NCBI GenBank assembly: GCA_964035545.1
Contig: OZ037765.1
Span: 27,031,504-27,095,503 of the forward strand
DNA length: 64,000 nucleotides
DNA from: Bugula neritina
Lineage: Eukaryota; Animalia; Bryozoa
Direction: 5' to 3'
The notes beneath the pieces were generated by a model that saw nothing but the letters and a program-made list of their open reading frames with translations, was not told where the DNA came from and did no database searches. The translations under genes and the position numbers were made by a program. Shown piece by piece: positions 1 through 61,814 of the stretch (position 1 is the first letter of the stretch; each line of letters begins with the position of its first letter).

Positions 1-1918
1 CTACTATCTGTGATGGAGTGAGTATCATCAGTGAGAGCTTCGCTAGACAGAGACTGACGCTCTGAGTCGATAGCTGATATAGGTAAGTATGAGGTATTGT
101 AAGTATGATATGGGTGGGGTGGTAAGGCACAGTCGTCCCGGCTAGCCTTCTGAAGGTAGTAGCTGCAACAGAATAACCAGCATACTAACAGCTACTTCCA
201 GTCCCTTACATGACACACCTCTTACTTCCACATCACTCATACCAAGAAGATAAAAGGCAGCGCTTTGGCTGCCTATATAATATTTTGTTTCTAATGAAAG
301 GCAAAGAGAATATATTGCACTATATAGTCTAACATCATAAGAGCTTAAATACTTTCATCTTGATTTCATCCATTTACAAAGAGAATCTACAAGTATGACC
401 ATTGATCAAAACTATGAGAAATCTTTTGATTTCAAAGCTCTTCTACTCAACCCATATGTATCTTAATCAAGCAGGTTTGAAAGAGAAGGTAGAAACCTAT
501 CAATACAAAACAAAATTCGGATAGGTTTAATGATTGGCTGCTTACTGGCTTTCATCTGCTGAAGCCTTTATTTTCTACATCAAATAAAGAATTGTTAATT
601 AAGAGTTATACAAAATGCTAATCAGTACAATTTAAGTTAACTTTCCGAATTAGGAAGTCTCTAGCTAGGTGTCTCTCCACCTAACTAGCCCTATACCATG
701 TTTATTACAATACAAATGTAAGATAAGAACACAATAACCAGATAACGCTAAGCAAACATTCCAAACAGAAAATACAAACAACTATAGCAATAAATATCAA
801 ATAACATTCAACTTAATGGAAGCATTTGTACGAGTACTAGAGGATATGAATGTTGAAGGTAGATAACTGCAGAGGATATTACTTCGCAACCTGGCCAGAC
901 ATAGTGCATGTATAAGCTGTGTATATGCTTACCCTGCCTGGTCTTCAGGCTTTATCTTAGATTCCTGCCGCAATCTCTCTGTCATCTTCATATTCTTTGC
1001 AGTTAAAGAGAGAACCGGGGCATCTGAAGTGAAATTGTCAATGTTAGAAGAGACTGGGTGGAGATCTAGCTCTGAGTCTTCATGCACAGTTGGTAATGCT
1101 GTGCTCAATGGACGGGCACTGGTAGAGCCACTGGAATTCACAGAATCCTTTGGACTCTCTTCTAATGACTGAATATATTGCAGATAGATATTTGATTTAA
1201 AAAATGGTAAATAGAATTCTCTCCGTAAAATCTCCAAGACCTGGTCCTTGACAGGATCAAATATAGACTTAGAATACTGTTTAGAAGCCACTTGGCTTGC
1301 AATAGCCTCCTCGGACTCTTTGGCTATCATGGTTAGCTTTTTATCCTTTTTATCACCTTTTATATAAACTCTATTCATTGTTTTTACTAAATAACCAATA
1401 TCTTTCACAGCTTCGCTATCGAGAGCTTGAAGATATTTCCAAGCAAAATAAAATTCAAACAAGTTTACATTGTTCTCCTCTGTTAAGTATTTTTTAAATA
1501 AGTTTACGCCTTCAGCATCGTCAAGCAAATAGTCCAGGTCCTCAGACCATTTAGCATATATAGGGCTGCCGCTCTCCGTGAACTCCAACTTTCCATCCAC
1601 GCTGCCTTCAGGTTCAAATCCCAGCGGAGCCTCGTGCTCCCCAGCATGCTGAGCTGTGGCTGGTGGTTGTGAAACAGCGGCAGCTGTGGGTGGCAGTTTT
1701 GCTGGTTTCTGAACCTTTCTAGGAGTAGCTCCTCCAGCTCCAGAACTGTTACTCCGATTTGAATTAAGTGACTTGTGAGATCCTGAACTCTTATTGGAAT
1801 GGCCACCGGTGGACTGTTGCTCATTTTCTTCCCCTGGACCAACAGGTGGACGCGGTGTGTTTTCTGTGAAATTGCTTCCCCCTGAGTTATCCAAGTATCG
1901 GTGAACATCCACACTCAT
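1..1918 (-). CDS. Axin: Axin (Wnt destruction-complex scaffold), N-terminal part; gene continues beyond the left edge
   Basis: Coding exon 1918..933 has the tankyrase-binding segments (FTENTPRPPVGPGEE, LGFEPEGS) and an RGS domain (KWSEDLDYLLDDAEGVNLFKKYL...FYLPFFKSNIYLQYI), with a GTAAG donor at 932. Next exon 162..1 (phase 2, TTGCAG acceptor) reads YYLQKASRDDCALPPHPYHTYNTSYLPISAIDSERQSLSSEALTDDTHSITDS, matching the conserved Axin DSEQQSLSSDA motif. An acceptor at 1972-1973 implies an upstream non-coding exon. Confidence 0.95.
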
Positions 1919-4279
1919 AACTCATTAGCATAGCTATACTCCACTTGCAACCATTTGACAGCTTCGACTTTCTAAAATCACAGCAAGTTTGAATATGTAC
2001 ATGATCATAGCAATAGCCAATAGCAACTAAAACAGGACAGGCTTAATGATAGTGAGACAAACATAACAGCTGAGGCCATCCTATTAATCTCAAGAGCAAT
2101 TGGAACATTCCCAATAACACAATCTGCACAAAATTCTCTTTGATCATTGAAATCAATTTCAAAGGATTTCCCTTTGAAGTCTGCACTCGAATGACTAATT
2201 AAAGGAAGATGATACAATTGAAAAAGAGGCTATATGTAACTAAAGCTGTTACGACTGATTCTCCATCAGTCATGGTCCCAAGGAAATAACTTATTCTAGA
2301 AATAGGTTCAGATGGAGGGCAGTTGTGCAAGTTTTAAAACTCAAAACATCAAAGGTTTACAACCAATATTATAAAAAACTGCAGATCTGAATTGTTGAAG
2401 CCTACATAGAACTGGCAAGACTTAAAACTGACATCTAAGATTAAAGATGTTGGCATGACTGCCCCCTCCCTTGTGAAGATTAATAGAAGCCTTACATAGT
2501 TTTGGGTGCACAAGTGTTCAACACATTTAGATGTATGGCATATTTTAAATAAGTTGAAATACTAAACAAAAAAGATTAATGGCTCCCTTTGTGACTAGAG
2601 ACAGGCAAACAATGGCCTTTCTCAACAGTAAGTAGATTATTATCATCTGGTGTTCGAATGGAAGATTAGTAATTCCCATGCCTTGTATGAATTAAATACT
2701 TTTTAAAGTTTCAGCAGTAATGTATGCAGGCCACTGCTGTATAACAATTGGCACTTCTAGGTGTGAGGTGAGGTTTTCAATTTCTTTTCAAATCTGGCAG
2801 TAGTTGAACATAATATAATATATGAAACCAAAATATATAAAACTTTAATTACATAGTGGCCCAAAAAAGTCTTTCTTCAAAATAAAACAGAGTAGGTAGT
2901 AGCTTTGTAGGAAATGCAGACTGAGTCCACCAATATCATATATACACCACTGGTGCATGTAATCAACACCTTGAATATAAATTATATTAATTATAGATCC
3001 ATTAGACAGTGTGGATAAAAAAAGTTAGTTAGAGGGCAACTTTAATACCTAAAACTGCAGTCTAAACCACTCACCAAAAGAAGCATATTTAAGAAGCTCT
3101 GATGCCTATTTATAATAATTACATTTGTCTATATAGCAGTTTATGCATGTCATATACAACTGTTTTAGACCACCCAAGAAACTTGGTCAACAGCTTTACA
3201 TTATTAAAATGTATCTACAACTTTCAAGAATGCAGATGAAACACAGAGTTTATTTACGTGCAAGTTATATCTATTTAGTCATAATTCAGCAGAAAGTGCA
3301 ACTTACCAGGCTAAAAAATATATACTTCAAAATAGCTCCTAAAACTGGAGATGTGAATTGCAAATTCACAATTTTCAATAAAAAATTTTAAATTAGTTTC
3401 TCTCGATTTTAGCTTTTATATAACTTCTTATTTTGTTGACAGTAAAGAATTTACAGAAGTCATAATTACAAATAACATAACTATTTAAATAAACACTAAA
3501 TTCATTCAATAATTAAAAATATACACATTTGAGAGTAATTATTGTTGTAATTTATATTTACATATTGGACATATATTATTATAAGCTTCTGGCCACTTTA
3601 AGTTGATCCTTATTAGAATTCTAACCGTGCTAAATAATTCATATTGATTGTTTTTTCCACAATTACCATTCATATGATATTAATTAAATAGAATATCAAT
3701 ATAAATCATAAGTTTAATTACAATTCAATAAGCACCTACTAGTACTACTATTGAAATACTAGGAGTATCTACTCATATACTTAAATCACTAACACTATTA
3801 GTAATAGTAAAACCTACGATGGCTTATGATTATTATACCTATTAAATACAGTAGTTTTCATAGTTATACTTGTACTAATTCTAAAATATTTGTACTAATA
3901 TGCATTTAGTCATTCCACTTCAACCTTTACTTTTAAAAAACTGTGTTAATTACATTAACCTTACATGATAAGGCTTTTACTTTCAGTTCCACCAAGTTTA
4001 AAACTTTGGTGATTCACCAACAGTACACCTGGTGACTCACAAAAACACTGACATCTGACAATCAAGCTGAGAATCACTAAGAGTAACTGTAAGTTAGAGG
4101 CTGGGAAGTCCAAAATGGAAACCAAAACAGACACAATAAGATTGAGTGTAACTTGAATGGAATAAATTTAATCATCATTCATTCTGTTGGACATTTTTGA
4201 TTTTACAATTTATATTTCGATTTTAATTTTCTATGCTAGTGTTACCAAGTAAGAGTAAGAGTAGTTGTAAGAAAAAGAT

Positions 4280-5190
4280 GAAGATAAAATGTAACTAGTA
4301 GTACCAGTAGTAGCAGGTAGTAATTAGTGGAAATAGTATTACTAATAGTAATAGAGTATTAAATCTAATAAGTAATTGCAACTCGGTAGTAGTACTACTA
4401 GATCTAATAAACAATACCTACTCAATAGTAACTCAAACTGCAATTCATATCAGCATCAGTAATAGGTAATGATTATCATTATCATTATGATCATCACTTC
4501 ATGAGTTCATCATCATTTATTTCTTATCATCGTGATAATACTTATAGTTATAATTATTATAATTTGAATATCATAATGATATTGACTATCAACTTCAAGT
4601 AATTACTAATAGTAATTCAAATTGACATTGTGATTTAAATTGTGATCGTCAGTATCAATCTATCACTGTCGCTATCGGTATGACTATGAGTATCACTTTA
4701 TCAGTATGAGAATCAGTATAACTATGACTATGAGTATGACTAATACTACAATTATCAAAATGATAATCATAATGACTATGAGTATCAGTATGAGTATAGA
4801 CTATCACTATGACTATGTCTATAGTATACTCTAACTCTAAGTCTATACTTATACTATAACTTATAGTCTATACTATAGCCATAGTCATAGTGATAGTGAC
4901 AGTCTTAGTCTAAGAGTAAGTATCAGTATCACTATGGCACTGACAGCATCACTATTAGTATTACTATTACTATTAGTATTACAGTATTAGTATTAGTATC
5001 AGTATGAGTATGACATTGAGTTTGACTATTAGTATTACTATTACTTAGTATTACACTAACACTAACACTAACAGTAACACTATAAGTATTAGTATGACTA
5101 TGAGATTGAGTATCACTATGACTATCACTATCAGTATGACTATGTTTAAGGCTATCAGTATCATACTAATACTAATAGTAAACAGCTAAA
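4280..5190. repeat. Degenerate hexamer-periodic low-complexity tract (ACTATG/AGTATC/AGTATT)
   Basis: Runs such as actatgactatgagtatgact and agtatgagtatagactatcactatgactatg, with orientation switches. Boundaries approximate. Confidence 0.8.
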
Positions 5191-5379
5191 CTATGTAATT
5201 TAAATTGAAATTCAAATTGTATTTCAATTTGTATGACCAAATCCAATCGCCAACGGCAACTCCAAGTCAAACACCAACGGCAACAGACCTACAGTAACTA
5301 CAAAGCGTAATTAAGAAATTGGATTAGCTCACACATTATAATAATAGATACATGTATATTGTATATGACTTATACTTAC

Positions 5380-5901
5380 AAACTTTAATCAAAGATTACA
5401 GGCTCGTGCACTTATTTGTGATGACCGTGCCAAGTTCATGGTTCAAGTTCACGGTGGAATAATTAGAAGAAAATTTTAGGATGCAACTAGCTAAAAGTTT
5501 ATCGGCATTGAAGATACTAGAAATATGTCATTTTTTTATTCACTGTTTTTTAGTTTAAACAATTTTTTTTCATTAGTTTTCAACCTAAATAAATATTTTT
5601 GTAATGAAGAAAACAAATTGAAAAAAACACAAAGTAAGAACTTAAGATACAGAGTTATTCTCCCTTGAGCTCCGTGGTTATAATTCCAAACATACGCAGG
5701 AGGAACCTGTAAAAAGCATCTACATGACTCGAGCCAATCTGAAGTACAGATTCAAACTTCAGTGGTTGAAGATATCGTATAGCTGTTTGATGAGAATGTG
5801 ATAGAACTTCAACTTCAGACAGAAGAAAAGTAATTTGCTGTAGTGTTAAACTAGCAGAGTTTTATCAAATTGGCGACCGTGCCTTTCATCAATTAGAATA
5901 G
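5380..5901. promoter_or_regulatory. Putative divergent promoter and non-coding first exons of Axin (-) and FGFR1OP2 (+)
   Basis: Minus-strand GTAAGT donor at 5379 and plus-strand AG|GTATAAG donor at 5902. Both genes have a splice acceptor just upstream of the ATG (1972-1973 and ~7551). Start sites not observed. Confidence 0.45.
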
Positions 5902-5924
5902 GTATAAGTATTGATGAGTTATGG

Positions 5925-6560
5925 ACTAATAGTAATACTATTAGTATTAGTATTAGTATTACTATTACAGTATTAGTATTACTGTATTACTATTACTATT
6001 AGTAATACTATTACTATTAGTATTAGTATTACTCTATTACTATTAGTATTAGTAATACTAATACTAATAGTAATAGTAATACATTTATACTAATAGTAAT
6101 ACTAACGTCTAATAGTAATACCAATAGTAATACTAATACTAATACTATTAGTATTACTATTAGTATTAGTAATAGTAATACTAATAGTAATACTATTACT
6201 ATTAGAGTATTAGTATTACTATTAGTATTACTGTATTAGTATTACTATTGGTATTACTATTAGACGTTAGTATTACTATTAGTATAAATGTATTACTATT
6301 ACTATTAGTATAAGTATTACTATTAGTATTACTATTAGTATTATTATTATTACTATTAGAGTATTACTATTAGTATTACTATTAGTACTACTAGTACTAC
6401 TACTACTAGTAGTAGTACTAGTAGTACTAATACTAATAGTTATAGTTAAACTTAAAGTTAATGTTTTACTTAAAGTTATGATTTTAGTAATACTCTAATA
6501 CTAATAGCTATAGGAATACTAATGCTAATAGTAATGCTAATAGTATAACTATAACTGACT
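5925..6560. repeat. (AGTATT/ACTATT/AATACT)n degenerate tract containing internal inverted repeats
   Basis: Visible tandem hexamers. Inverted arms at 6061-6139 and 6233-6311, plus a hairpin at 6381-6431. Confidence 0.9.
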
Positions 6561-7575
6561 TTGAGTGTCAAATTGATTTTGATTTTCAGTGTTCATAATG
6601 ATAATGAAATTATTTTTGTTACTGTCACACTAAATCAGTAAATGATAAGTAAATGTTGCATCAACATTTTGAAAAGTAAACTATAACTATAAATTTGACT
6701 TTAAATTTCTATTTTACTTTTAGTTTTACTTTTAGGATAAGCATAAAACTAAAAGTAAAGTTGATTTACTAAATTATTAAATATATCATTGTGATTATGA
6801 TAATAATCATAATCATAATGATAATCATGTAATAATAGTGACTATGAATTGAAATATGTCAAAAACTAAAAGCAATCATGACATAATTTAAATTAGTGAT
6901 AGTTATTAATTTATTAGGTTATTCTTGTAGTTTTAAACTTTTTGTTCAGCTTTTAACTTTGTTTTTTTATACCCTCTTAGTCATAACCAGAATGAATCCT
7001 GGAACTTGATAGAATGATTCATTGATCATAGCAAAATTTAAATTATAAAATTGTGAATATTCTGATATCCAAATTATTGTTGATACAGTACTGATGGCCC
7101 ATATTTTAATAGCAACCAGCTATATTGTGCTGCTACTTTCAATATTAGATTCAGTTCTCAAGTTTAGCAGAAACATTAGTTGTAAGGTTGAGTAACTTAT
7201 ACTTAGTAATAGTATCTTTCATCTGTTGTTGATATAATAGTTGAAATTAGTGCTGTTGTAAGTGAAAGTAAAGAGTTTAATTAATAGACTGAGTTACTTA
7301 CCGCTTAGCTAGTATTCTTATTAAGGTAAATTTACATAAACTGTAACTAAAAAATAAATCTAATTGAGTTGCTTATTCAGTATTAAGTTACTGCAACTGC
7401 TACTCTACAGTCTACAACTACTTTTTAGAGTTTAAAGTATCAACTAGCTATAGTGCAACTTTTAATGGGTCAGCCGCTAAACAATAGCTATCAAAACCAC
7501 TGCTGGGTTACAGATCTTCATTTGAAAAGTAGATAGTGTTTTTATATTTCAGAACGTGGTTTTAAAAGATTTTTG

Positions 7576-9388: not shown

Positions 9389-11835
9389 TCATATTAGGTG
9401 TACACTACCATTCATTAGTAAATTCTGGATTGTTTTATATGGCAAGAGCTGTTGATCATCTTCATCAAAATCTACTACTTCATCTTCTATTCCACCAGGC
9501 TCACTTACTGTCACGCCTGTTATTGGTTTCTCGACTTTTATGAAGACGTATTTGTAGTATTCTGGCTTGATCACTGCAACAAGCAAAATATTAAAATTAG
9601 TATGTAATTATCAATTTATATATATATATATATATATATATACCATACTTCACTAAAAATTTGCCCGTTCATGAGTTAAGACACTGAATGTATACACAAT
9701 GCTGATGAATTGAAAGATGTTTGCACTAACTTACAAATCATTAAATAAAGCAGACAAACTGGAACTAATTTCTGTCACTAATTGTTAATCAACTATGAAG
9801 TTATCTTTTCATAACAGCTTTAAACTATTTACTGAGTTCAACATGTAATAATCTTAAGCAAAAGCTTTCGGCTGTTTATGAATAAATAATATGTGTAGGT
9901 AATATTCCCTAACCTCAGCTATTATACAAGTATAATAGCTGGGCAGAGTAGGGGGGGGGGGGTAAAATACCAATTAGGGTAAATTTGCTTGCAGTTGAAT
10001 ATTTCCTTTTAGCATGTATATTTAAATGCCACTGATGAACTTACATGACTACATTTAATGTTAAATTACAAGATGTTAGTATACTTATTTTAGGCGCTAG
10101 AAAAATTGTTTGACAACAATGGCTTTACAGTATATGCATTAGTAATGAGTCAAGAACTCTAAAAATTCTGAATCCATAAGACTAGAAGCTCATAAACCAT
10201 AATAGTGGAACTTACTCATTTTATCCATGTTGATTTTTCGAACATTTTCAGGCATATTTTTTCCAGCACTTTCTTCCAGATGTGTTTTCATGTTAGACCA
10301 AAATCTACAAGATGAAACATGATGGGTGCAAAAAACTCAGACACACAATAGTGGAATAGCAAATTGGTATTGTTTAGCTAAAAGCCAATATATGAATAAG
10401 AAACTTATTTGAGAGTTGTCCATCCATAACATAAGATCTTGTACAGTTTTCCACTAAGAAAAATCGGCACAGCTTTTTGGGGATGCAGCTGATTGGTTCA
10501 CAAAAACAATATTTTATATATAAAATGTATTATAATTAAAAATAGTCAGCACATGATGTGCATTATATAAAAGTAGAAAGAACCATCATTTACCCGGTAA
10601 CAAAAGTTAGCTCGTCATCCGTTAGTTTAGTTTGTTCAATTGGATCTGAGGCAATTAATTGCGCAAATTCTTCCAGCTACAATTTTAGGAGTAAAATAAA
10701 ATACAGAATATAAATATGTGCAGGAATACAGCCAGCTCCAAAGTCTAGCAATGAGTAAAACAGCAATCAACTCAATCACTGAGACCTGACGGTGTGATTC
10801 CCAACACAAGAAATAGAGCATTAGTTATCAACACAAGCTGTTGGCAAAAAACTACTAACATATATAGATATATGATCATATGGTTATATGTATATGAACA
10901 TATATAGATACTGTAAATCAGTATATGTATACATATTATTGTACAATATAAATTTTACCTTTTTAAGTCGGCATCTAAGATAATCTGAAATAATGAATTT
11001 TATTCTGTCCATCTCCATAACATGTGCAGCCACTCGGATGTCTGCCTTAGAAGTTGCCTGACTAATCATCACCTCCAGCTCTTTCAGCTGCTCCAACATC
11101 ACATCAACAAACTCCATATGGTGTTCCAGCAGCTCTGGGCACATCTTCTCATCCATCCATGCCTAAAACAGATATGTGGACTGTTTGAAGCATAGTCAGC
11201 AATGTGTTGTAGCGTTCAAAGATAACTCTTTTAAATAAATAAATTTTCAACACTTCTGAAAGCATAGCATAAGCACACATCAAATTCTTTTCAAGAAAAG
11301 TATTTGCTAGGGCAGGTTTTTCAGGAAATATCAACTGTACATCTATGAATGTGAAATAGTTTAAGTTAATTTCCCTTACAGTAAAATCCTACTAACTATC
11401 GAAAAACCAGTGTTGGGTCATTTTCAAGGCAACAGTGAAGCAAAGAGTAATTGTGCAGCAAAAGATCATAAACGTTCTATGTAAATACCTCAATAACAAA
11501 TATAAGTTGTGTTCTTTAATAATGGATTATAAACAAGTTTCACTATAATCTACAAGTTATGTTTTTTCTCTTCCACGCACGAGAGAGAAAAAGTGTGCGC
11601 GCGCGCGCGTGTGTGTGTGTTGGTGTGTGCGTGTGTTATAATTCTAACAGAAATTTATTAGGTTACTATTATGTCAATAAACAAATGTAAAAATTCTTAC
11701 TCTCTCCAGTTTATCCAACACCTGCGCTGCTGAATAACTTTCAGTCTGGCTCTCTTCACGTGTTTCAGACAAAATCTCTTTGTCTAAAAAGCTGCTGTCT
11801 TTTTGAATTCCAGAAAGTGAAATATCAATGTCCAT
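9389..11835 (-). CDS. GINS4: DNA replication complex GINS subunit Sld5, ~231 aa
   Basis: Exons 11835-11701, 11162-10959, 10676-10594, 10304-10216 and 9573-9389 (696 nt, phases consistent). Motifs LERAWMDEKMCPELL, MEMDRIKFIISDYLRCRLKKLEEF, YVFIKV and QQLLPYKTIQNLLMNGSVHLI are typical of Sld5. Confidence 0.93.
11593..11634. repeat. (CG)n(TG)n alternating purine-pyrimidine tract
   Basis: gtgtgcgcgcgcgcgcgtgtgtgtgtgt in the GINS4 intron after the first coding exon. Confidence 0.85.
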
Positions 11836-12034
11836 TATAGAAAGATAGACAAGTCATTAGTGAACCTGGAAGTATAAATTTGTGTCCTTTAAAGGATTGC
11901 TCTATCTTGTCTAATAAATGGCCATTTAGGTCAAACACACATAATATTGTGTTTTTCTAAGCATGCATTGACAAAAAGCATTTGACCAAAGGTAGAAAAA
12001 GTTAGTTGAAGTTGAGGGTGTAGATTGGTAACAG

Positions 12035-12110
12035 CCAAAACGCCGATTTTGAAATGAGCTGGGAAATGTGACGTAACAGCGCCAGCATTCCTGCTGGTCA
12101 CGTGACTATA
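12035..12110. promoter_or_regulatory. Candidate cis-element cluster upstream of GINS4 (CHR-like TTTGAA, E2F-like GCTGGGAAA, CRE-like TGACGTAA, palindromic E-box GTCACGTGAC)
   Basis: Motifs read directly within a locally CpG-richer patch. Function inferred only from motif similarity. Confidence 0.35.
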
Positions 12111-13709
12111 CAAATGAATAACTATAGAAATATGACTGTGAGATGTGATCTTTCAGCTCGTAATTTGTATATTTACAGAAGTGCAAATGTGAATTATCTC
12201 AATCTATAGTTTTTTGACATGTTAAATAAAATGTATGTGATAACATTAGGCTATATTTTGCTTGTAAACATAGAAAAAAGCATTGCAAAAACATGCATTC
12301 TTTAGGATGAATGCCTGCGATCGATCTAAACTAGGTCAGATTGTGCAATATTACGGGCGCACCAAAGCTGACCTATATAGCGCACTGTAACTGCTTGAGC
12401 GTTATTGGTTAATGTTGCGCTCAGCAACCTTGAATACTAGCGTTATAGTTAGCACGTGCAGCATAGTTACTGGCGTTCACACGTCACGTATTAGGCTATT
12501 CTTTTTCATGGCTGAAAATTTTACCTCCCTCAAAATTGGAATTTTGAAAAGCTGTTTTCTAGGCATATATCCCTTTGCAAAGTCACAATTGTTTGCATAC
12601 ACATTAGATTATAGTTCATAATTATAATGTGATTGTAATAAACTAAGATAGAGCAATCCTTTAAAACTATTCACGAGAATTACTGAATATCAAATATTCA
12701 GTAACAGACAGTATAACAGTGTTAAATAGCATTTTGCATTCAAGTGACCAGGTATAAAGTCATTATAGGTCTCCCTGAAGAGCTTTTTTTGTACTTTGTT
12801 CTCAGCCTCAGATTATATTATTATGTCATCTGCATAGAGACTGACTTTGAATGTCTTAGATTTGGGAGATCAATGATTTAATTGAATTATTGCGTAAATA
12901 TAACAAATAATTTAAAAATTAAGTTCTACAATCAAAGCCATTAGAACAATAATTATTCTTATAAAATTAGATATACCAATTTTAAAACTAAATAATTATA
13001 AATACACGTAAATATCACTATTATCATAATAACATTTTTATTAATCATAATATTAGCTAAAGCTAAGTTTGAGCCTAAACTAAAAGTTAATATAAGTTAT
13101 ACTAAGGCCTAAGACTAATGAGTAAAAAGCAATGACTGTGTGTGAGATGACTGAGACTAATCAGTGAAAATGAAAGACTACAACTTATATTCATATTGGC
13201 ATTGATAATTGTATACAATATGTAAGACTATAAGTATCAGTATACTCCTACTGTATAGGATTAAGTATAATTAAACTATATAATAATTGTAATAGACAGC
13301 ATTAATAATAGTATTACTATTAGACTATTAGTATTACTATTAATATTAGTATTACTTACTCAAAGTGATCATCACACTGGACCGCCCTAGAGGGAGGAAG
13401 GGGTGTGCCGCATATGGGTAAAGCGTAATGTGTTGTACAGTCATTGGTCAATAGTCACACAGTTAGTACTGTTTGGGCTGTGTTACTGTCTATCACTATG
13501 TGGAGATTTCTAAATTATTGCTTTGGTTATGACCAATTTTTAGGTCCTGAATAATCATTGGGAGAAAACTGTTCAGTTGCTTGGTACTGTTAGCACCCAC
13601 TAACCGGGAGTATCCCCATGCTTGGGAGCAAGTCTGTATGGTGCTGTTTGTTGATTTGTTCGGCAGGTCATCATAGTGATAGGCAGAGCTGAGAGCCAGA
13701 TGTTGATCT

Positions 13710-14100
13710 ACTATACTAGTAGTAGTAGACGTAGCATTACTATTAGTATTAGTGCTAGTACAGTAGACGTAGTACTAGTAGTAGTTTCTACTCACTGGTA
13801 GTCTACTGTAGTAGAACTTCAACTTACAACTTGAACTAGAAGTCGAAGTCGATACTCACACTCACACTGATACTAAATAGTTGTTTACATTATGATTATG
13901 ATTACATTTTGATTTAGTTTTACTGATAGTGATACTGACAGTGACTCTGGGTGATACCTCAGGGCTCAGGCTCATTATCAATATCATAATCATTATGATT
14001 ATCATTATCATACTAATACTAAGTCTTTAATAGTAATAGTAATACTAATGTCTAATACTAATAGTAATACTGAGTAATAGTAATACTTGAAGTAGATAAA
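13710..14100. repeat. Degenerate tri/hexamer-periodic tract upstream of tankyrase exon 1
   Basis: tagtagtagacgtagcattactattagtattag and tagtaatagtaatactaatgtctaatactaatagtaatac, the latter resembling 6098-6135. Confidence 0.7.
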
Positions 14101-14274
14101 ACATTAAAAATAACATCAGATTAGCGTTACAATAATAACAATCATCACCATTATTAATCTGGCATTATGATTCAGATTAGGATCATCATTGAATTCAAGT
14201 GATTATCATAATGAATATCAATGTTATGTTTAGAATTAAGTGTAACTGATCGTCTTTATTATAATTCACAACTA

Positions 14275-14481
14275 AACGCAAATCCGAAAGCGTTCCCGCC
14301 TAGACACTTTCATTGGTTGTACAAAATAATTTTAGCCAATGTTGTATCAATGTTGTATATTGTTTTTCTTTGTACGCTTTAATTCACGATTCTTTCATTT
14401 TCCCAGACGTCATGTGATCATAATAATTATCGCGAGCTGGGCGATAAATGACGGCACACCTCCGCCAAGTAAATAATCACA
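14275..14481 (+). promoter_or_regulatory. Putative tankyrase core promoter / 5' UTR
   Basis: CpG-richer patch with E2F-like TTCCCGCC, CCAAT boxes on both strands and CRE-like GACGTCA immediately before ATG 14482. Confidence 0.4.
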
Positions 14482-17400
14482 ATGGCGACTGGTAGTGGCA
14501 CTAGGAGGTCAGCTGTTGTAGACAGTTTTCCTCAAAATTCCGAGTCAGGCAGAGAATTGTTTGAAGTATGTCGAAGTGGCGATTTGACCAAAGTAAAAAC
14601 TTTAGTCAACAGTGTAAACGTCAATTCTAGAGACACTGCAGGAAGAAAATCAACACCACTACATTTTGCTGCAGGTACCCGTAGCACTAGGCCTAGCTAG
14701 CGGTAGCAGTAGCTCGATGAAAATAAAACACAAAACAAAAATAATTTTCTGTATGTAAAGTTAATCGGGAGGATTTCTCCTCAACTGAGATAGATGCTAT
14801 TATTTATATCACAACTATTATTAAGTAAGTCTGTCAGTTTTACTATTAGTATCAGTATGATTATCGGTATGACTATGAGCATCAGTATGAGACTACACTG
14901 ACACTCACTCTCAGGACTACAGTATCAGAGTATGACTATGAGTATACTCACTCTCGGTCTTGGTATAACATTAAGGATAAGTTAAATTTAATATGATTTT
15001 AAGTTTAACAAATAACTTTGAATTTAAGTTAATGTTAGAAGTCAGAATATTATCATATTCATGATCATTATCAATTATGATTATCATTATTATTAACTAT
15101 CACACTCAGTTTTTAATTTCACTATGATATTTATATTCATATTGAATGTCGTAGGGATATTGAATTTGATATTTATGCTCATTCTATTCTGATTGATATT
15201 GATACTAATACTAACAGTAATAGTGATACTGATAGTGAGCTTTTGATACTCACTACTAACAGTAACTACTCAGTCGTACTCTGACGCTCACACTGGTGTT
15301 ACTGTTAGTATCAGTGTGAGCACAACTATGAGTACAGTGATATGTTATACTTAACTTATAGTTATAAGTTATACTTAGTCTTATAGTTATACTAATAGTA
15401 TTGGTTATAGTTTTCCTGTTAGTATTACTGTTACTATTAGTATTAATATAAGTATATCTATTAGTATTAGTATTACACTTAATTTTACAGATTGAAATAA
15501 GAATTATAGTAATAACCATCATTATAATAGTATAAGTACTTGTACAAATCTTCAAAATTGGTAAGTAAAACCAAATGTTAAACTGAATGCAATAATTTTA
15601 TTGAAAGTTTATTATTATAGTAATACTCATATTTTTACTCATTCATAGTTGTATTGTTAGCCTATTACTAGTAATATGACTTATGAGTAGCTTGGTAAGC
15701 TTCTGAGAAACATTGTTTACAATTTTAAAGGCATATGTAAGACTAAGTAGGTTAAGTTGAACTTGAAAAGTTTAGTTTCAGTTTAAAAATGAATAATTTT
15801 GATTTTTAATAAAGACAACGCAAATCTATTTTGGATCTACACTTTTCAACATCATAATGGTGTTTGGCGTAAGAGTGACAACACTGTTTTAAATTTCAAT
15901 TTTTTGAAAACAGTTGTAAGACTAAGCTACTCTTTAGGGTAATCATGCATTGCTGCCTAATATTCATAATTAAAAATATTTTAGGCCAATAGTTTAGTGA
16001 TGAAGCTGTTAACTATGGAGATAGCCACAGTTATGGGGAAATAGTTCATTAGTTTTAACTAATTACTTAACCGATAACAATGTATTTTTATTGTTTGAAT
16101 TTTTTATAATTCTCAAATTTAGTAAATCATGCCATAATAATAAAAAGTCTGGTGAAATGAATATATAAATTTTGTATTTTATCTAGACTGTTGGTGCTCA
16201 CCCTTATTTAAAATTATTCACTGGACATTATGATAAATTTTAATATCAGTATGTTGTTCACTAACCCACTTCGTCCAGCCATTTAGTCTAGTTGTTGAAA
16301 ACACAATGTTTAATAAATACTCGCCCTGAACATTATTTTGTATCTGCTGCAGAGCAACATTTTTCTAGTAAATAGGGTCTGGCACGCATTGTATGAACTT
16401 CAGTTGTTGGAGTGTCATGAGAATTGTTGGTAATGTCAAAATAGGCACATTTATCTGCTGAATTAGAAAAGTCCTTAAGCTATGTTTTTCTAAGTATAGT
16501 TTAAAGCTGAATTAGAAAAGTCCTTAAGCTATGTTTTTCTACGTATAGTTTAAAGCGAAACTCTATTGCCTCCCTCCCGAAATTTGGCAGACCCTAATGT
16601 ATTATATAGCTATTGTGTAACTATCTTTCACATTTATTGGTAGAGACTAGCCTATTTTAGCCTTGGTTTTACAGTATTTGAATAAGCCGCTTAGGTATAA
16701 ATTTAGTTTTAGTCTAAAGTTTTATTTGAGATTGGTGGTAGATTTATTCAATGATAGATTTGTAGTTATAAACATAAACTAAGTATTAAATAGCTAAAAT
16801 TGCGGTAAAAATCATCCTCACTAGGCTGAAGCTACTAGGCATTGCAAGGGCTTGGTTTAGACCAATGGTTAGAGCACAGATTTCTGCATTGACTAAAAAG
16901 TTTATTTTGTTTCTTGTGGTGAAATTGACTAAACTTAGCTCATCAGATGTAAACCATTTGTTTTTAGTTATGTTATGAATAAACATTAATTTTGATTAAT
17001 TCAGTTGGCCAACAGCCCATTATTGTGAATAAACCCTCCCATAGACATATCATCCTCCTTGTAAATTCCATATTTACCAACAACAAATTTAAATTCTAGG
17101 CTATTGTTCCAACATTATAACGTTGTTGAAAGCTTGTTGAATTTACTTTTGTTTGGTTAGATTAATTTGCATGAACACAAAGCTACTTGAATAATAAATT
17201 TGATACACTTTGTATTATAATTTTTACTGTCTATTGGTTTTGTTTATACTACTTGTGAAAATTTTCTTTCATTAGGTTTTAGTTACCTATTTGTCTTCAT
17301 GTAGCTATCAGTAAGTTTAACATATTATTTGCAAAAGCATGAACGAGTGTTTGTTGTTCAAAGTAAATGGTCTCAATAGCTAAGTTATTAGTTGATAAAA

Positions 17401-20400
17401 TATTGAATCATAATGTTAATTTTCTCAAGGATTTGGACGAAAAGATGTAGTGGATCATTTGGTGGAGTGTGGAGCTGATGTGCATGCTCGAGATGATGGT
17501 GGTCTCATACCTTTACACAACGCCTGTTCATTTGGGCACGCAGAAGTTGTCCACCTTTTGTTATCACAAGGCGCTGATGCAAACTCTAGAGATAACTGGA
17601 ATTATACTCCATTGCACGAGGCTGCAATCAAAGGAAAACTAGATGTTTGTCTGGGTATGTTACTTTCTTGCTTATAATAGAATAGTGTGAGTAAGTTGAT
17701 TCTGTCAACAACAAAACCCAGTTTTTTTTTATTGAAAGAAATGCTGGCAGGTCATCATTGGGAAATTTTCCCTTTTTGTGTTTTTATATGTGTATGAGAT
17801 AATAGTTGTTCCTTTGGCCAGTAAATCAGTCTATCCTTATTGAAAATATATTTTCTGCTGCAGTCTTGCTTCAACACAATGCAGATCCTCTGGTGAATAA
17901 CACGGATGGGAAGACACCACTAGATCTAGCTGATGCTTCTGCCAAACTTGTTCTCTCAGGTACAATAGAATTTATTAAAAAGTACTTTTCTAAAGCTTAG
18001 TATCTAATACTTCCTTTGTTGTCAAAGGTTTTGTTACTTGCATAGTTTCTTAGAGTGATTTTTTTTTTAGAGATTTTGATAACATTTCATTACCATTGTG
18101 TGTTCTGAGGTGCTGTTCAGAGAACCTGCTGTGTATACTGTATACTGTTTAGATTACCCTGTGTATTGGTAGGTGAATACAAGAAAGATGAGCTGTTGGA
18201 AGCTGCCAGAAGTGGCAATGAAGAGAAATTAATGTCTCTGTTAACTCCACTGAATGTCAATTGCCACGCATCTGATGGTAGAAAGTCCACACCATTGCAC
18301 CTAGCAGCTGGCTACAATAGAACGAGGATAGTGCAGTTGCTTCTGCAACAAGGAGCGGATGTGCACGCTAAAGATAAGGGGTGAGTGTGCTGCCGTAACT
18401 GTGACTCAATATTTTTGGTGGAATTGTTGATATATAAATAATAGACTGGTAGGCAGCAAATAGTCCTGTTGCAATAATACAATACATTAAGGAGAGTTAT
18501 ATGAATCGCGTATAGTCAGGTTTCTAATAATTTCAGAGGTTTGGTGCCCCTGCACAACGCCTGTTCCTACGGGCACTTTGAAGTCACAGAGATGTTGCTG
18601 AAAGCTGGAGCCAACGTCAACACTATGGATCTGTGGCAGTTCACACCTTTACATGAAGCTTCATCCAAATATAGGGTGGAGGTCTGTGAATTCTCTGATA
18701 GGTTCTGTTCTGTTCCAGTGATATAAGAATATACATAGTTTATTGTAATTAGTAAATCCTTGCAAGTCTGTATTGAGATAACTGGATGTGGCATATATGT
18801 TTTTCTTGCTTTGATCTCATAATGTTTATGTTTTGGTAAGCTATAGTGTAAACATATGCCAAGTATTGGTTGTATATTATGCTGTCATTAACTCTCTGTA
18901 CATCTACCTAGGTGTGCTCATTGCTGCTTGCTCATGGCGCTGACCCAACACTTCCAAACTGTCATAACAAGGCAGCAGTAGATGTAGCGCAAAGAGACTT
19001 GCAGGAGCGGCTCCATTATGAGTTCAAAGGTCATCAGGTGTTGGAGGCGGCCAGACAAGCAGACTCGCAGAAACTCAAACGCAGCATCAGTGGAGATAAC
19101 TCCAGCCTTCTTAGTTTCAAACATCCTTTCACTGGTGACACAGCTTTGGTATGTGTTGGTGCAGTGTGCTTACTGTATGATGACTGTTCGCTTATATAGA
19201 ATGATAACATAGTTACTATGGGCATACAATTCCTAATCAGTTAGCAAATATTGTCCATTTGAATTTTACTATTTCTTGTTATGTAGCCTCAAAAAGGATT
19301 ATTGAATGTTTTGCAGCATTGTGCAGTTTTATCTCCCTTTCCTAAAAAGAAACAAGTTACAGAGCTGTTGATAAGAAAGGGACAAACGTTGATAAACGAA
19401 AAAAATAAAGAGTGAGTTATGGTGACATCTGCTGAACTTTCTGGTGGAAGTGTTTCACCAGCGTACACATAACTGTATTAGTATTTCAACATAATAATTA
19501 ATCACTAATTTGATTTCAATATTATCAATAGAGTTGCAACAGCTTCCATGATTGTGTGCGGAATGGTTGTGTGGGCTTTTAGTTCCTTATTGAATGTGCT
19601 GTGCTGGTGTCTCTCCATTACAGGCTGTCCTGTCCATGGAGCATGATAAAACATGTAAGCTGCACCTCAGAGCTAAAGTATATATCTATTGCGTAATATT
19701 GTAGGTTTTTGACAGCTCTGCACCTGGCTACAGATAAGTGTAGCTACGATCTGATGGAGCTGCTGCTAGAGAAAGGAGCTAAAGTGAACGCACTTGATAA
19801 TCTAGGTCAAACTGCTCTACATAGAGCAGCTCAACAAGGCAATGTCCAGGCCTGCAAACTTCTCATGACATACAATATCGGTCAGTGTGCGCTACTCTGC
19901 TTTACTTTGGTGTATATGCTGTCTTTAGTAAATATGCTGACTAGTGAATATATCGCTACTAGTTCTCTGTCACACACTTACATAATACACACTCATACAC
20001 CTGTGCCTACTATCTGTAGATATTAGCATAGTGTCCCTCCAAGGTTACACAGCTGCTCAACTGGCTACTGAACCAGTACAGGAGTTCCTTAGGGAGGGCC
20101 CGCTGACTGGGGGAACAGATGTGGACAACCAGCTTCTGGAGGCAGCTAAAACTGGTGATCTAGATCTAGTGAAGGTATTCAGTAGAGGTCCTCTACCACC
20201 TAGCACTGTATGTTGTATCCTAGCACTGTATGTTGTATCATTAAAAGGTCGAAGCTTGTTGGCTCTGGTAACCTAGTTTTATGCGCACTGTGTGGGGGAA
20301 ACAGGCATTTTAAATATTTTTGCTCCTGTATCATGGAATTTTGTTTTCCTGCGTGCAAACCACCATGTTATTTTGACTCACCCTCAGTCTTTTTACATAT

Positions 20401-32184: not shown

Positions 32185-32815
32185 ACAATGCAATGCAGTG
32201 AAGTGTAGTGTAGTGTATAGTACAGTATAGTGCAGTGTAGTACAGTACAGTGCAGTGTAGTATAGTGCAGTGTAGTACAGTGGAGTGCAGTGCAGTACAG
32301 TGCAGTACAGTGCAGTATAGTGCAGTGCAGTGCGATGTAGTGTGGCATAATGAGGTGTAGTATTTAGTGTAGTGAAGTGTAGTGTAGAGCAGTGAAGTGT
32401 AGTGTAGAGCAGTGAAGTGTAGTGTAGAGCAGTGAAGTGTAGTGTAGAGCAGTGAAGTGTAGTGTAGAGCAGTGAAGTGTAGTGTAGAGCAGTGAAGTGC
32501 AGTGTAGAGCAGTGAAGTGCAGTGTAGAGCAGTGAAGTGCAGTGCAGAGCAGTGAAGTGCAGTGCAGAGCAGTGAAGTGCAGTGTAGAGCAGTGAAGTGC
32601 AGTGTAGAGCAGTGAAGTGCAGTGCAGAGCAGTGAAGTGCAGTGCAGAGCAGTGAAGTGCAGTGCAGTGCAGTGCAGTGCAGTGCAGTGCAGTGCAGTGC
32701 AGTGCAGTGCAGTGCAGTGCAGTGCAGTGTAGCGTAGCGAATTGTAGTGTAGTGTAGTATAATGTATAGTAAAACTTAGTGCAGTGCAGTGTAGCATGGT
32801 GCTCTGTAGTGTAGA
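32185..32815. repeat. Pentamer satellite (AGTGY/AGTAY) with a 20-bp higher-order repeat
   Basis: 14 copies of AGTGAAGTGYAGTGYAGAGC at 32371-32650, then pure (AGTGC)n to ~32725, with degenerate flanks. Confidence 0.97.
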
Positions 32816-36213: not shown

Positions 36214-46859
<10,646 letters not shown>

Positions 46860-48478
46860 ACTGACACTGTCTGCAGGAGATTACTAAAATTAGAATAAAT
46901 TTGGTAAACATAGCTTTACACTAAGCTGTCTTTTGCATTTTCATTTTGTGAAAAAGCCAGCTGTGTTATGATTACTGCAACTAGTACTATATGCAACGTC
47001 AAATGTATATTCATATTGTATAGACATAGTTATCTAAATGTAATCTAAATCTACATTAAAATTACTATCAAAAAATACTTGAAAAAAAACATAGTACATT
47101 TTGAACTTTATTGGAAGTTTGAAAACCTAGAGTATTTATTCAAAGTTAAGCTTGAAATAGAGGTTTTGGAAACGTTAAAACAAAGCAAATATTTATTAAT
47201 AAAGAATATATGTTTTGCAATTAAGCCAGTATAAAATTCTTGCCAGAAACCAACTATTTGTCTTGAATATGCTAAACGCATTGAACACCTAAAATCTTTA
47301 TACTATCATAATCATGCTCTTGTCTATGCTCTTAATCCATGAGCAAGTAATGTGAACACGTTACACTTACTTTATGCTTCTAATAGAAAGGTTTTTCAGT
47401 ATATTTTTATTATTTATTCATACAGTATAAGATTATAAGCTCCCAAACTAAATTCTATTCAGACACAACTAGTAACTTATAATACAACTATAATTAGTAG
47501 CTATAAGACAAACTCTACAGTTTGAACTTATTCAGATTAAAAAGTAGCACAAACTTATATTTTTTAAGTTGTTGAAATATAATAATTATAACAATTAAAA
47601 CTTTAACTTACCTTAAATTATTGATTGTTATATGAAAAAGTGCAGTAAAATAATCCTCTAGACGTATATAAGATTAGTTGCTGATACCATCATAAAGGAA
47701 CCTGCGCCAGCAGTTGTCAAATCAAGAATAAACTGTTTGTTTACCAACAAATCAAATTAACTTGATGATATGAGTGCTGTCACATTTATAAATGGTTGCA
47801 TATTTAACAGTTCACCAATAACGGATAGTAATCTAGGCTCCACCCATTAAAAAAGAGAAGACAACTCAAAATTTAGATTATGCTCAATAATTCAATTTTA
47901 GCTTGCAGCTCGTATACTATATGTATAGTAATTGGGCAAGAAAACACGCATAATATTATTATATAGCTGGTATATACTATATACCATGTGTATGTTTTTG
48001 CACAATTACTATACACTTGCAAGCATATTTTGACAGAGCCTCCAGTGTTATAAACAGAGAAACTCTGAGGCAAGATAATTTTAATGAGAATGTTATACCT
48101 CATTCCATGCCTCCAGAAGATACTTTAAGAAACTTATCATTTTGCCTAAATGACTATTGAGAATATTATATATTTATTTTAATAAATTACTTGTTTGTTT
48201 CAGAACATGACTTCAGTAAATGTAATCAAATCCAATTATAATTAGTACAGATACGACAACAGGTCTAACTAATAAAACTATCAAATATGCTTTGCCATAT
48301 TTTTGCAATTTCATCATATTTTATTGTTATTCAATTAACCAATCGTATATACATTGAAATTACTATTTAAAAAAATTACATTCTAAACAAAAATCAAATA
48401 TTTTGCAGCCATAGAATACAGGAAAACAGCATAACATATTTAAAATATCATGTATGAAAACATGCATTACAATGCCAT

Positions 48479-49024: not shown

Positions 49025-49619
49025 TGTGAACTACAAAATTAATGCAGATGTAAAGTTGTGTACACATTCACAATCATGATATGATAACTCCAAAGATCTT
49101 ATAATGAAATTTGAACATCTCTGCTCAACTAATTTAGTGCAATACAAATTACTACAGAGTGCAGTGTTTCTTCAGGGCAAGTTTGAATAATATTGGTATC
49201 AAGATCCAACCTGATTAAGTTAAAATCAGAAATATTGAGAGTGGGTATACAGCATAATTCTTTAGGGTGCTCAAAAGCTATCACCATCAACAAAAATTCA
49301 AGAATCACTGTTAAGCGCATAAAATTCTAATTAATTATAATGATATACAGCTGCACAGGGTAAAACATAGATGATAACAAAAATATACCAACTATTTTAA
49401 TGAGAAAACTGCTCAGCAAACATAGTGCTTAATCACTTGAAAAAATTATTTTCCTTCTTGAGCAAACACGCTATAAACATTGTAAACGCATAAAATGTCA
49501 GTGGTTCATGCTGCTACTTTATATATACCCAGTGATAAAATAAAGTAGTAATAATAAAGATTAGCATTACTAAAGTATAAAGTATAAACTACAAATTATG
49601 TCACAAAACAATCTACTAA

Positions 49620-51050
49620 AGCAGCATAATTATATTGCCTACCAATACTACTATTAGACTATCACTCAAAACTGTTGGTTATTGTATCAGGTTATACTTA
49701 TTGTTATACTTATAGTTATTGTAGCATAAATTGTGACACCGTACAAAGTTAAACTTATTCGTGCAGTTAGTGTTACTTTTAGTGTTGCACATACTAAGAG
49801 TTATAGTAAATAAGTAATACTCATAGTCATACTGATACTGCTCGTGTTGCATTAACACCTATACGGCTATACTGATTACTATACGTACAGTTACACTTAC
49901 ACTTGGAGTTAATCTTATTGACTGAATTATTATTATAATTATATTTAATTTCATCAAACTTGAAGAAACATCAATTATTATATAATATATTAATTATATT
50001 TTAGTTTATAATAACCAAATTTAATATAAACTAGAACTTAAAGTTAAAGTAAAACTAAAAGTAAAAGTTAAATTGAAGAGCCAAAAACTGAAAAAAGTTA
50101 AAAACTGAACTCTAAATTTATCCAATATTACAATTAATAGAGCTTTAAGATTATCTTGGATAAAACTATCACCTGATCTAAATTTGAAGTAGAGTTGAAC
50201 CTGAACGTTTCAAAATAACCTTGATCTGGCACTCTCACACTCACACTCACACTCACACTGTAGTAGAAACACAGATCAAAATGAAAATGAAGATTTGTAT
50301 GTTAGTCTGACCTTGACCGCTGCTCTACGAATACACTGGCATTAAAATGCCAACTAGTCACCGCCGAAGCCAATAATATATTTATTACTAGACCTCATTG
50401 GTCTTCATCAAAACAAATCCATATCTAGTTTCACTTTCATTGTTGATAGCGTCAACAGTATTTATAATAATTGATGGTGGTAGTTCTAAAGTAATTAAAA
50501 ATAAATGTGACTATAATTGTAATTATTGTACTGAAAGCTTTACGAAACTGACAAATCATGTGTGCTACGCCATGATAATGATATATAACTGTAGGAAAGC
50601 TTAATGATGCTCATAACGATATTTATAATTATTAATTATAATATAGAAAATCTTTGTGGTTGTCAATACGACAATAGACATAGTAGTTAGTACTCAGTTA
50701 GCAGTACTAGTATTAATAGTAGTAGTACTCGTAGGTAGTAATTCAATTTGTAATCTGTAAAACCAAGTACCAACAGTAACTCTAGGTAGTTTAACCACGT
50801 ACTTAGTACTAATATCAATTCTACTATTGATTTACTTTTAGTAAACTAGTAAAACAAGGAACTAGTAACTGTAACTTGTAAGTGTAGCACGATTAAATTT
50901 AAATTATAATAATTCCTTTGCAATCTTTCAGTAAGTTCATACGCTAAACCGTACTGGTACTGATACCGATCAACTTGGAGTGATAGTAATACTGATAGTA
51001 ATAGTCAGTGTCACTATAAATATCCATGGTGATTATTATTATCTTGATAA
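49620..51050. promoter_or_regulatory. Putative divergent promoter region of GET1 (-) and NT5C2 (+) with periodic low-complexity tracts on both sides
   Basis: Genes are head-to-head. Periodic tracts lie at ~49620-50110 and ~50680-51050, with (CACACT)n at 50231-50260. Start sites not observed. Confidence 0.35.
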
Positions 51051-52969
51051 GTTTTACAAAGCAAACTGAAACGTTAATGTTACTGCTTCCTCGTGAATTT
51101 ATGTGGATGAACAGTAAGACCAAAGTAGAAGGATAAGAATTAAACACTACAATTTAAGTTTTGGCTTTAATTATTTAATGTAATAATAAAAATAATTATA
51201 ATTAATTTACTCAACTAACACCTCTCCTTCTAGTTTGAAATTATAGTAAATTAGAACTCTTTTCACATTGCTGGGCAAGTAGTTATCAAAAGAGTTCAAA
51301 CTGCCTCGAAATAAATATTGGTGTGTATATATAGATAAGAAAACTCAGTAAAAAATATTTGCAGTTATATAGGAAGTAAAAAAGACCAGTGGTATAAAAA
51401 AGAAAATAACCAAAAGTTATGTTTTTGCAAGAATTTCAACCTGCAGAAATTGAGTAATTTAGGCTATTGAAATTTCTTAGTTACTGCAGGTAAATGGGTA
51501 AAAAAATTAATTTTAGTTTAATTGACAAGTTTTTATATACAACAAAAATGCTTCTCATTGTCTTTAAATACTGAGGATCTTTTTTCACTTTAGACTTCAC
51601 TATATTATTAAATGCTTTATATGAAGGTAGAGTCTCAAAGCAGGGGGAAGTAGAGGCCTTCACGTAAAAGTATTACAAATATGTGAACTCAGATAATCTT
51701 TAGTCTATGACTGTCTATACGAAAAAAAAAAACAAACGGAGTTTATTTATTCTACATGATGCAATATATACTGCAAAAGTTTCTGCACCACTGTAGGTAA
51801 ATTGAATTACCTTTTAACAGGTATTATTAAAGCATTATATCCCCCTTACATCATGATTTCATAAGAAAATTGAAATGTTTTTAGTGGTCACACCTTTATG
51901 CTTGGTAATTTAATAAATTGCAAGCATTCTAATAATTTATATACATAGTATGGTGGAAAACTTAGAAATCAAAATAGTTGCTGTACAATCTGGGTTATCA
52001 ATATAAATGGTATTAATATAATTTCAAATATAGCCCTAGATGTAGCAATTTAGACTTATCAGTATAAATATCATTATAGAATAACATTTTCAATTCTACT
52101 ATTACGAATGGACATATTAACCTGCTATGTATGACTCATTGCAATTAAATGCCATGGAAGTATGGTTCACTATAGAAAGCATAATTATTGATTAGAAAGC
52201 ATATGGATGCAACTTGATAGTTCATTTTCCATGTGTTTACTGAACAATTGAATGTCTATACAAAGGTCAAGCTCAAGCCTGTTACTTTGCAACTGTAACT
52301 ATAATTGCACTAAAAGCTCATATTTTTTGGCTCAATAGTGTGAATTATGTGGAACTAGTATATCTAGTTTGAAGGTTTTAAAACCTGTTTATTATTAATT
52401 ATGTAAAAGCTTTAAATTACTTTGCTTTTTGAAGGATACTTTATGAGCTACAATTTTTTATTGCAGCTTGTTGTCTGTCTCGAAATTATTAGTTGATTTT
52501 ATTCTTTAATATTTTCCATAGAATAAGAATACACTAAAAAAATCCATAAAAATAATATTTAAATTTTTAATTACAAAATACATTTAACAATACTAAAACT
52601 ATACTTCCACATTTCTCCTTAGAATTTCCCATTCTTGTGCATTAGCAAGTCACCATTAATAGTAAAGTAGTCACAACACTGAATAAACTAAGTTATGTTA
52701 TTATCATTTTTTTATTTTCATACAAAAAGGTTAGTTTACTTTTAAAATGAATTAATCTCTGTTGTAACTATTTTATAATGCCATGAACTAGTCTAGCACA
52801 GGTTTTTCTATAAACTTATAAGATATATTTCATTAAATGGAGTTGTTTTACCCTGTCGGATTCGCTTCACTGCACCTGCGTGTATATATCATTATTGTGC
52901 TATCTTATGCAAGATATGATATTATTATGTTGACTAGTGACTGGAGCAGTGAGTATATAAAGCCCAAGC

Positions 52970-61814
<8,845 letters not shown>

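Follow-up and report, generated by a model that had tools for sequence, protein, structure and literature searches.

Promoter-proximal tracts of odd palindromes in a 64-kb stretch of a bryozoan genome

What are the tracts of degenerate hexamers that lie around gene starts in this DNA, and what could have made them? An earlier note on the window (the whole 64-kb stretch of DNA analysed here) placed seven of them between or just inside head-to-head gene pairs and read them as something other than ordinary microsatellite scatter, tied to promoters or first introns. All seven are present approximately where they had been placed, with lengths of 0.3–1 kb; the extents given were roughly right, except that the tract at 49.6 kb continues to about 50260. 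In the list, scaffold refers to the model described below it.

T1, 4280..5240, Axin intron 1 (gene on the minus strand): core scaffold 4536–5181; ASTATS, ASTATT, ATWATS and AAWTTS units
T2, 5925..6850, FGFR1OP2 intron 1: the strongest tract; mostly TA-S-TA-W units in both orientations, with long imperfect inverted repeats
T3a, 13010..13360, likely GINS4 intron 1: weak save at 13300–13357
T3b, 13710..14240, GINS4 side of the GINS4/tankyrase promoter: scaffold and lag-6 signal
T4, 14820..15560, tankyrase intron 1: scaffold; approximately equal length in a diverged lineage
T5, 49570..50260, upstream of the GET1 acceptor (49031), in a likely 5' UTR intron: AA-S-TT-W and ACACTC units
T6, 50680..51057, upstream of the NT5C2 acceptor at 52937: weak scaffold

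Tracts and gene starts

Using 300-bp bins over the whole window, a lag-6 excess greater than 0.1 is seen in 13 of 213 bins, of which 12 are inside tracts and the thirteenth is (TA)36 at 57.1 kb. Pooled identity at lag 6 is 0.52 in the tracts and 0.31 in control introns; at lags 10–11 the values are 0.27 and 0.29, which lends no support to nucleosome positioning in its usual 10-bp form, one of the roles that had been proposed. The tracts are also labelled by a Viterbi scaffold model in which alternate bases match A.T.T. in either orientation; this was built from the tracts themselves, and what truly tests it is whether it stays silent elsewhere in the window. Every one of the 2,685 bp that it labels falls in one of the seven tracts; one local shuffle of the window gives 0 bp, and nothing is labelled in the 59 kb outside the tracts, which take in numerous internal introns, 3' ends and the 9-kb convergent gap, regions from which the tracts had been said to be missing. 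Scaffold strength differs tenfold from gene to gene (T1, 646 bp; T2, 823; T3a, 57; T3b, 265; T4, 658; T5, 151; T6, 85). The literal A[CG]TATN put forward as the motif suits the tracts at 4.5–5.2, 5.9–6.6, 13.3–14.1 and 14.8–15.5 kb, but it is weak at 49.6–51.0 kb, where the period is carried by other units.

Domain matches in Pfam were obtained for 15 of the 19 translated stretches, and agree with the gene-pair names proposed earlier: Axin (RGS and AXIN1_TNKS_BD) with FGFR1OP2 (SIKE), GINS4 (Sld5) with tankyrase (Ank/PARP), and GET1 (CHD5) with NT5C2 (5_nucleotid). Also supported by Pfam are an EF-hand gene and a receptor tyrosine kinase with Ig domains; the latter, which we take from its architecture to be FGFR, provides a seventh gene start in the window that the earlier note lacked. 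The splice evidence for the features below comes from contigs presumed to be RNA, of a lineage several percent diverged, which cannot show start sites.

5380..5440, minus strand: probable Axin 5' UTR exon 1; donor GTAAGT at 5379, acceptor near 1972
5803..5901 (start approximate), plus strand: FGFR1OP2 5' UTR exon 1; donor 5902, next exon from 7553
14250..14674: GINS4/tankyrase core and tankyrase exon 1 (plus strand); CpG observed/expected (o/e) 1.04; donor 14675
50270..50670: probable GET1/NT5C2 promoter core; CpG o/e 0.94
46893..47611, minus strand: FGFR intron 1, a tract-free counter-example; exon 1 from 47612 to about 47774

Tracts lie within the first introns of FGFR1OP2 and tankyrase, as located by RNA joints, and of Axin, as located by depth arithmetic. 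The FGFR1OP2 joint (5899 to 7560, 9 letters intervening) is present in one of two RNA runs, and the tankyrase splice 14675–17429 (joint 14672 to 17428) in both. One Axin RNA contig extends 61 nt past 1971, and the depth of bin 5287–5827, 7.17, equals 59 nt × 65.7 / 541; Axin exon 1, placed by this arithmetic and not by a listed joint, probably adjoins the donor at 5379. Scaffold starts 198, 35 and 156 bp behind the donors of Axin, FGFR1OP2 and tankyrase and ends 843, 925 and 813 bp behind them, in introns of 1.7–3.4 kb. Intronic positions are probable for T3, T5 and T6. Contigs extend 5' of the known exon by 23 letters for GET1 and 4–15 for NT5C2, and an upstream exon (or leader) therefore exists for each. 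At the GET1 acceptor (49032) exactly 23 further 5' letters are found in RNA contigs of two studies; these are either a short first exon, with candidate donors at 50172 and 50311, or a trans-spliced leader.

Of the four first donors named earlier, 5902 and 14675 are borne out by RNA contigs and 5379 by depth arithmetic, and 13359 stays a candidate. The suggestion that tracts mark first introns holds for Axin, FGFR1OP2 and tankyrase, the three of six tract-associated genes whose first exons are mapped, but fails for FGFR: its exon 1 joint is seen in all three RNA runs (X9, X10, X11), and no tract is present in its first intron or in the DNA upstream. The FGFR upstream region retains little CpG (o/e 0.36). 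CpG o/e is 0.73–1.04 in the three cores between paired tracts versus 0.13–0.36 in control introns; the tracts, at 0–0.71, are not CpG islands. Two motifs in the GINS4/tankyrase core are presumably E2F-like (TTCCCGC, 14293) and CCAAT-like. When tracts were placed at random, none of 200,000 trials brought all six main ones to within 150 bp of a core, and the value for one tract per pair (three tracts) is 0.0003, two of the three cores in this trial having been chosen partly by eye. Scatter regardless of gene starts is contradicted by the tract positions in this one 64-kb window, and the tie to promoters and first introns holds both here and at one distant orthologous locus (L005, below).

Some other features of these genes may be recorded. 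FGFR1OP2 and GINS4 are convergent, and their 3' ends overlap at 9389–9573, both under one RNA contig. Upstream of the GINS4 acceptor, 11890–12520 is a CpG-retaining, low-copy repeated stretch with low-depth RNA contigs; intron RNA might explain these, as might an alternative GINS4 start. Axin (929–5440), which has a tankyrase-binding domain, and tankyrase (14480–27330) are separated by 9 kb, probably by chance.

Unit grammar and variation

The tract unit is a grammar of odd palindromes rather than a single motif, and its centre flips between C and G at close to 50:50. An S base is the lone centre of A-S-T or T-S-A in 736 of 1,186 cases in the tracts, compared with 1,066 of 3,342 in controls. 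Tracts show no enrichment of even palindromes whose arms have two or more bases. Counts of C:G in the oriented units are 65:64, 31:33, 31:33, 17:16 and 19:23, with 5:9 and 6:3 in two small families. All four hexamer families with W-only arms are present, with 93, 19, 5 and 6 matches in 4,572 bp of tract and 7, 6, 4 and 3 in the 59,428 bp outside, the last two being small numbers. AP-1-type TGASTCA sites number 0 in the tracts. SS dinucleotide o/e is 0.29–0.68 (comparison sequence, 0.78–1.01), AA/TT o/e is 0.56–0.93, and A4/T4 runs occur at 2–23 per kb versus 25–48.

The spectrum of variation is dominated by complement swaps. In-phase neighbours show 133 single differences, made up of 84 C/G, 21 A/T, 22 transitions and 6 other, and S-to-W differences are rare (28 versus 84 C/G); among 518 differences between lineages (DNA run X2, some tract noise included), 30 are C/G and 323 are transitions. 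At lag 6 in matched context, complement swaps occur at 100 of 196 palindrome centres versus 5 of 129 non-centre positions (p 6e-22). Successive S centres alternate in 83 of 120 cases (p 3e-5), an order that gives a fold-back stem. A pentamer/20-mer satellite in the convergent gap (32197–32766) has a variation spectrum unlike that of the tracts, with C/G accounting for 1 of 39 differences.

Simulated slippage with the observed point-mutation spectrum yields 47–84% C/G differences from a young alternating 12-mer, dropping to 7–12% with age, and 3–6% from a single-unit start. Ordinary slippage thus reproduces the spectrum of a young array, and the spectrum is no proof of selection; since the simulated signal fades, what is needed is alternating near-palindromic seeds together with either renewal or selection, and no exotic mutation. 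An ordinary one-unit microsatellite was rejected, given the several unit families and 84 of 133 C/G differences in place of the simulated 3–6%.

DNA folding compared with dinucleotide shuffles is strong in T2 (mean z −5.4, with z below −5 in four of six windows) and in one of six windows of T1 and one of four of T4; in T3b, T5, T6 and the L005 tract it is no better than in shuffles. Shuffling only C and G leaves folding undiminished, and the order of these two letters is not tuned to folding.

Abundance and related loci

Summed depth in two DNA runs is 1,200–31,000 in tract-holding bins versus about 45 in unique bins, a quantity that is not copy number and from which the T2 core was skipped as repeat; bins flanking the tracts have single-copy depth. 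Tract-like sequence is thus common in the genome of the DNA runs. T4 is spanned by one contig in each run (X2, X3), and the spanning stretch has almost the same length as in the window (2,050 against 2,073 bp). Three other repeats lie in the window, the first of them between two tracts.

13400..13700, between T3a and T3b: dispersed multi-copy element, some tens of copies; depth 750–2,050 versus about 45
53508..53921, NT5C2 intron: very high-copy, MITE-like, with long inverted ends; depth about 215,000 (DNA run X3)
46620..46660, FGFR intron: short high-copy sequence, with a weaker match near 51414

The 13400–13700 element is also found in RNA contigs and has an 11-bp inverted pair (about 13490 and 13672), with the donor-like site 13359 alongside; it gave 0 Rfam matches at gathering score and 0 tRNAs, and its fold z is −1.4.

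The single-exon GET1 protein was used to look for relatives, and 8 were found among 127 candidates, the only named one being the bryozoan Watersipora subatra (60%), which makes a bryozoan source of the window likely. A scan with the GET1 alignment gave 10 loci, five of them (L001–L005) at 47–59% identity. L004 and L005 are likely bryozoan, in a GET1 tree that holds no non-bryozoan animal.

In L005 (GET1 50%) a similar tract occupies about 4130–4870, with a candidate promoter on one side and the GET1 acceptor on the other, and its dyad ratios of 3.88 and 3.76 are the top two of 157 bins in L001–L005 (median 1.0). Its period is 4, not 6, with AGT:ACT at 24:23 and TGA:TCA at 32:11; it was missed by the period-6 test and found only by the dyad measure, which was devised on the window. 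Place and dyad rule are retained in L005, unit and period are not, a combination more in keeping with a process than with a motif. At 5521–5630 the L005 GET1 has a coding intron lacking in the window's GET1, and the partner gene is different, presumably Sp-like from its translation. In L004 (GET1 47%) NT5C2 faces GET1, as in the window; only short AGTATA/AGTATG repeats are present (4557–4640), and tandem donor-like repeats lie near both genes (1–60 and 4557–4640). L001–L003 (59%) have no tract in the 0.65–1.3 kb upstream of GET1, in contigs that stop before a recognisable first exon, and in L002 the 1.3 kb ahead of the next gene has neither a tract nor a CpG-retaining core; evidence from these three loci is uninformative to mildly negative.

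Origin of the tracts and known systems

The reading that we prefer, with a probability of about 0.5, is that the tracts arise by promoter-proximal expansion and renewal of hairpin-prone near-palindromes through slippage and fold-back copying. Underwound or single-stranded DNA beside active CpG-retaining promoters would permit units to expand, with TA-S-TA-W, AT-S-AT-W and AA-S-TT-W units growing as alternating 12-mers; transcription from both divergent promoters would favour slippage and fold-back copying, and template switches would flip blocks and swap palindrome centres. Selection would act only to exclude tracts from exon 1 and the core promoter, and later co-option of tracts is possible. 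Passages of three papers report that quasi-palindrome template-switch mutations in yeast occur only under high transcription (PMC3820800), that transcription predicts STR mutability (PMC5814968), and that template switching homogenises arms and inverts spacers (PMC8604942). Expansion accounts for the orientation flips, the centre swaps, the alternation, the missing motif and the other unit in a relative, and the neutral mutational process that the earlier note allowed for explains the internal grammar at least as well as that note's main reading, through centre swaps and simulated slippage. It leaves unexplained the common period of 6 and the unit families shared across tracts, the ASTATS family, which is dominant in T1 and a poor hairpin former, and the near-constant length of T4 in the diverged lineage, which is unlike a fast-turnover repeat; these keep a selected element alive as an explanation. 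The confinement of strong folding to T2 and single windows of T1 and T4 also counts against expansion of hairpin-prone DNA. The evidence base is three promoter pairs, one counter-example (FGFR) and one distant locus (L005).

A promoter flank maintained by selection is a serious but less probable alternative. It could be an array for a DNA-binding or chromatin protein, or a matter of selected mechanics (flexible DNA with no A-tracts and no adjacent G/C), and would set the +1 to +5 nucleosomes or shield CpG-retaining promoters; exchanging C and G at a dyad centre keeps strand-symmetric dinucleotide content and would therefore be neutral under such selection while other changes were purged. Consistent with it are the sharp placement on both sides of three cores, the single period and shared unit families at independent loci, the balanced C:G with rare S-to-W differences and low SS dinucleotide o/e, the retention of T4 in the diverged lineage, the analogous tract in L005, and the absence of a tract at FGFR, where upstream CpG is low; the C. 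elegans PATCs are a precedent, being described in passages of two sources as intronic repeats co-opted as chromatin elements (PMC4947018; 10.64898/2026.08.08.743475). Yet there is no fixed motif, AP-1-type site or 10-bp period, tract strength is tenfold variable between genes, the C/G pattern is obtainable without selection, and the stretch holding T4 (114 differences and 66 gap letters in 1,305 bp) is conserved no better than plain intron (34 in 428 bp). Nearly as probable is the extension in which bryozoans mark broad CpG-retaining promoters with a selected flank of S-centred odd palindromes, its place and dyad grammar persisting while the period shifts (6 here, 4 in L005); if true, this flank would be a phylum-level counterpart of PATCs or of CpG-island shores.

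Remnants of mobile elements (a MITE or a Helitron minisatellite) that carried promoters or inserted beside them are an unlikely source. The T3 region does contain a multi-copy element with a strong donor-like site and a tract after it, the DNA runs are very rich in tract-like contigs, and PATCs stem from Helitron minisatellites according to part of one source (10.64898/2026.08.08.743475); but blastn of six tract regions with flanks gave low-complexity matches only, with no shared ends and no match of tract regions to L004 or L005, which lends no support to one degraded transposon family inserted at random, the flanking bins are at single-copy depth, and units drift inside each tract. A role in nascent RNA, as U1-like or branch-point-like decoys or as a polyadenylation-signal-poor zone guarding the first kilobase of the transcript, is if anything less likely still: AWTAAA is low (1.5 per kb versus 3.4 in control introns), 5'-splice-site-like hexamers are sense-biased overall (13 versus 4 antisense), branch-point-like sites are in excess (11 per kb versus 1.8), and tandem GTAAGT-like repeats lie upstream of GET1 in L004, but the two strongest tracts, T1 and T2, have 0 sense U1-like sites, the branch-point-like sites and the depletion of polyadenylation signals are the same on both strands, and tract orientation relative to the transcript is mixed, with no consistent strand bias. 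Nor is there a match to a known RNA family (0 in Rfam at gathering score, 0 tRNAs). Low-complexity coding sequence or an assembly artefact is very improbable and largely refuted by the splice joints, although tract frames do give Ser/Thr-Ile/Met or Asn-Ser dipeptides for up to 77 aa, and similar 27-mers in giant-virus-type contigs fall in reading frames (three of four as Asn-Ser/Thr repeats); RNA contigs splice over T2 and T4, the phase shifts constantly, and T4 is at the same place in independent DNA runs. The degenerate tract pattern matched 0 viral loci and one bacterial contig, which is not a tract by context; a second pattern matched four viral loci, three of them Asn-Ser/Thr coding repeats, and these are unrelated to the tracts.

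The tracts are thus real, non-random and apparently undescribed, being promoter-proximal simple sequence with an unusual dyad grammar. A search of the openly accessible literature, over listings and abstract openings, gave no account of such tracts, and passages of three bryozoan genome papers (PMC13326412, PMC11789643, PMC7576161) leave promoters, introns and microsatellites unmentioned, while their supplementary repeat tables may list the units as simple repeats. If the tracts are mutational, they are an unusually clear natural record of promoter-localised repeat making, with a near 50:50 C/G flip that is measurable in populations; if selected, they are a new signature of a promoter class, in a phylum where regulatory DNA has hardly been studied. 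Either way, unannotated 5' ends in bryozoan genomes might be found by means of the tracts, which promoter analyses will miss wherever repeats are masked.

C. elegans has MITE-derived bidirectional promoters, which likewise place repeat-like sequence at divergent promoters; the bryozoan tracts differ in having no shared motif pair or element ends, and they flank the core and do not form it. C. elegans PATCs are reported, in passages of the same two sources, to have arisen from repeats that transcription-coupled mutation reshaped and that were co-opted afterwards (PMC4947018; 10.64898/2026.08.08.743475). Like PATCs, the bryozoan tracts are degenerate, periodic, AT-rich, intronic and non-coding, with no fixed motif; unlike PATCs, which have a period of 10 and are defined by A-tracts, they have a period of 6 (4 in L005) with A-tracts depleted, are confined to the first kilobase behind exon 1, and yielded no transposon source. 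PATCs also protect against germline silencing. The tracts share short period, nearness to transcribed regions and a likely origin by slippage with the general class of promoter-proximal short tandem repeats, or cryptically simple sequence, but here several unit families follow one another in phase, in both orientations and for as much as 1 kb, and the main variation is complement swaps at dyad centres. Repeats of the CNG type form hairpins, and hairpin-forming quasi-palindromic repeats fold back with a regular T-T or A-A mismatch and show arm homogenisation and centre inversion. The tracts differ from these in being a species-wide, promoter-tied array with strong folding in some members only, and resemble them in that variation falls at self-opposed centres, where complements alternate.
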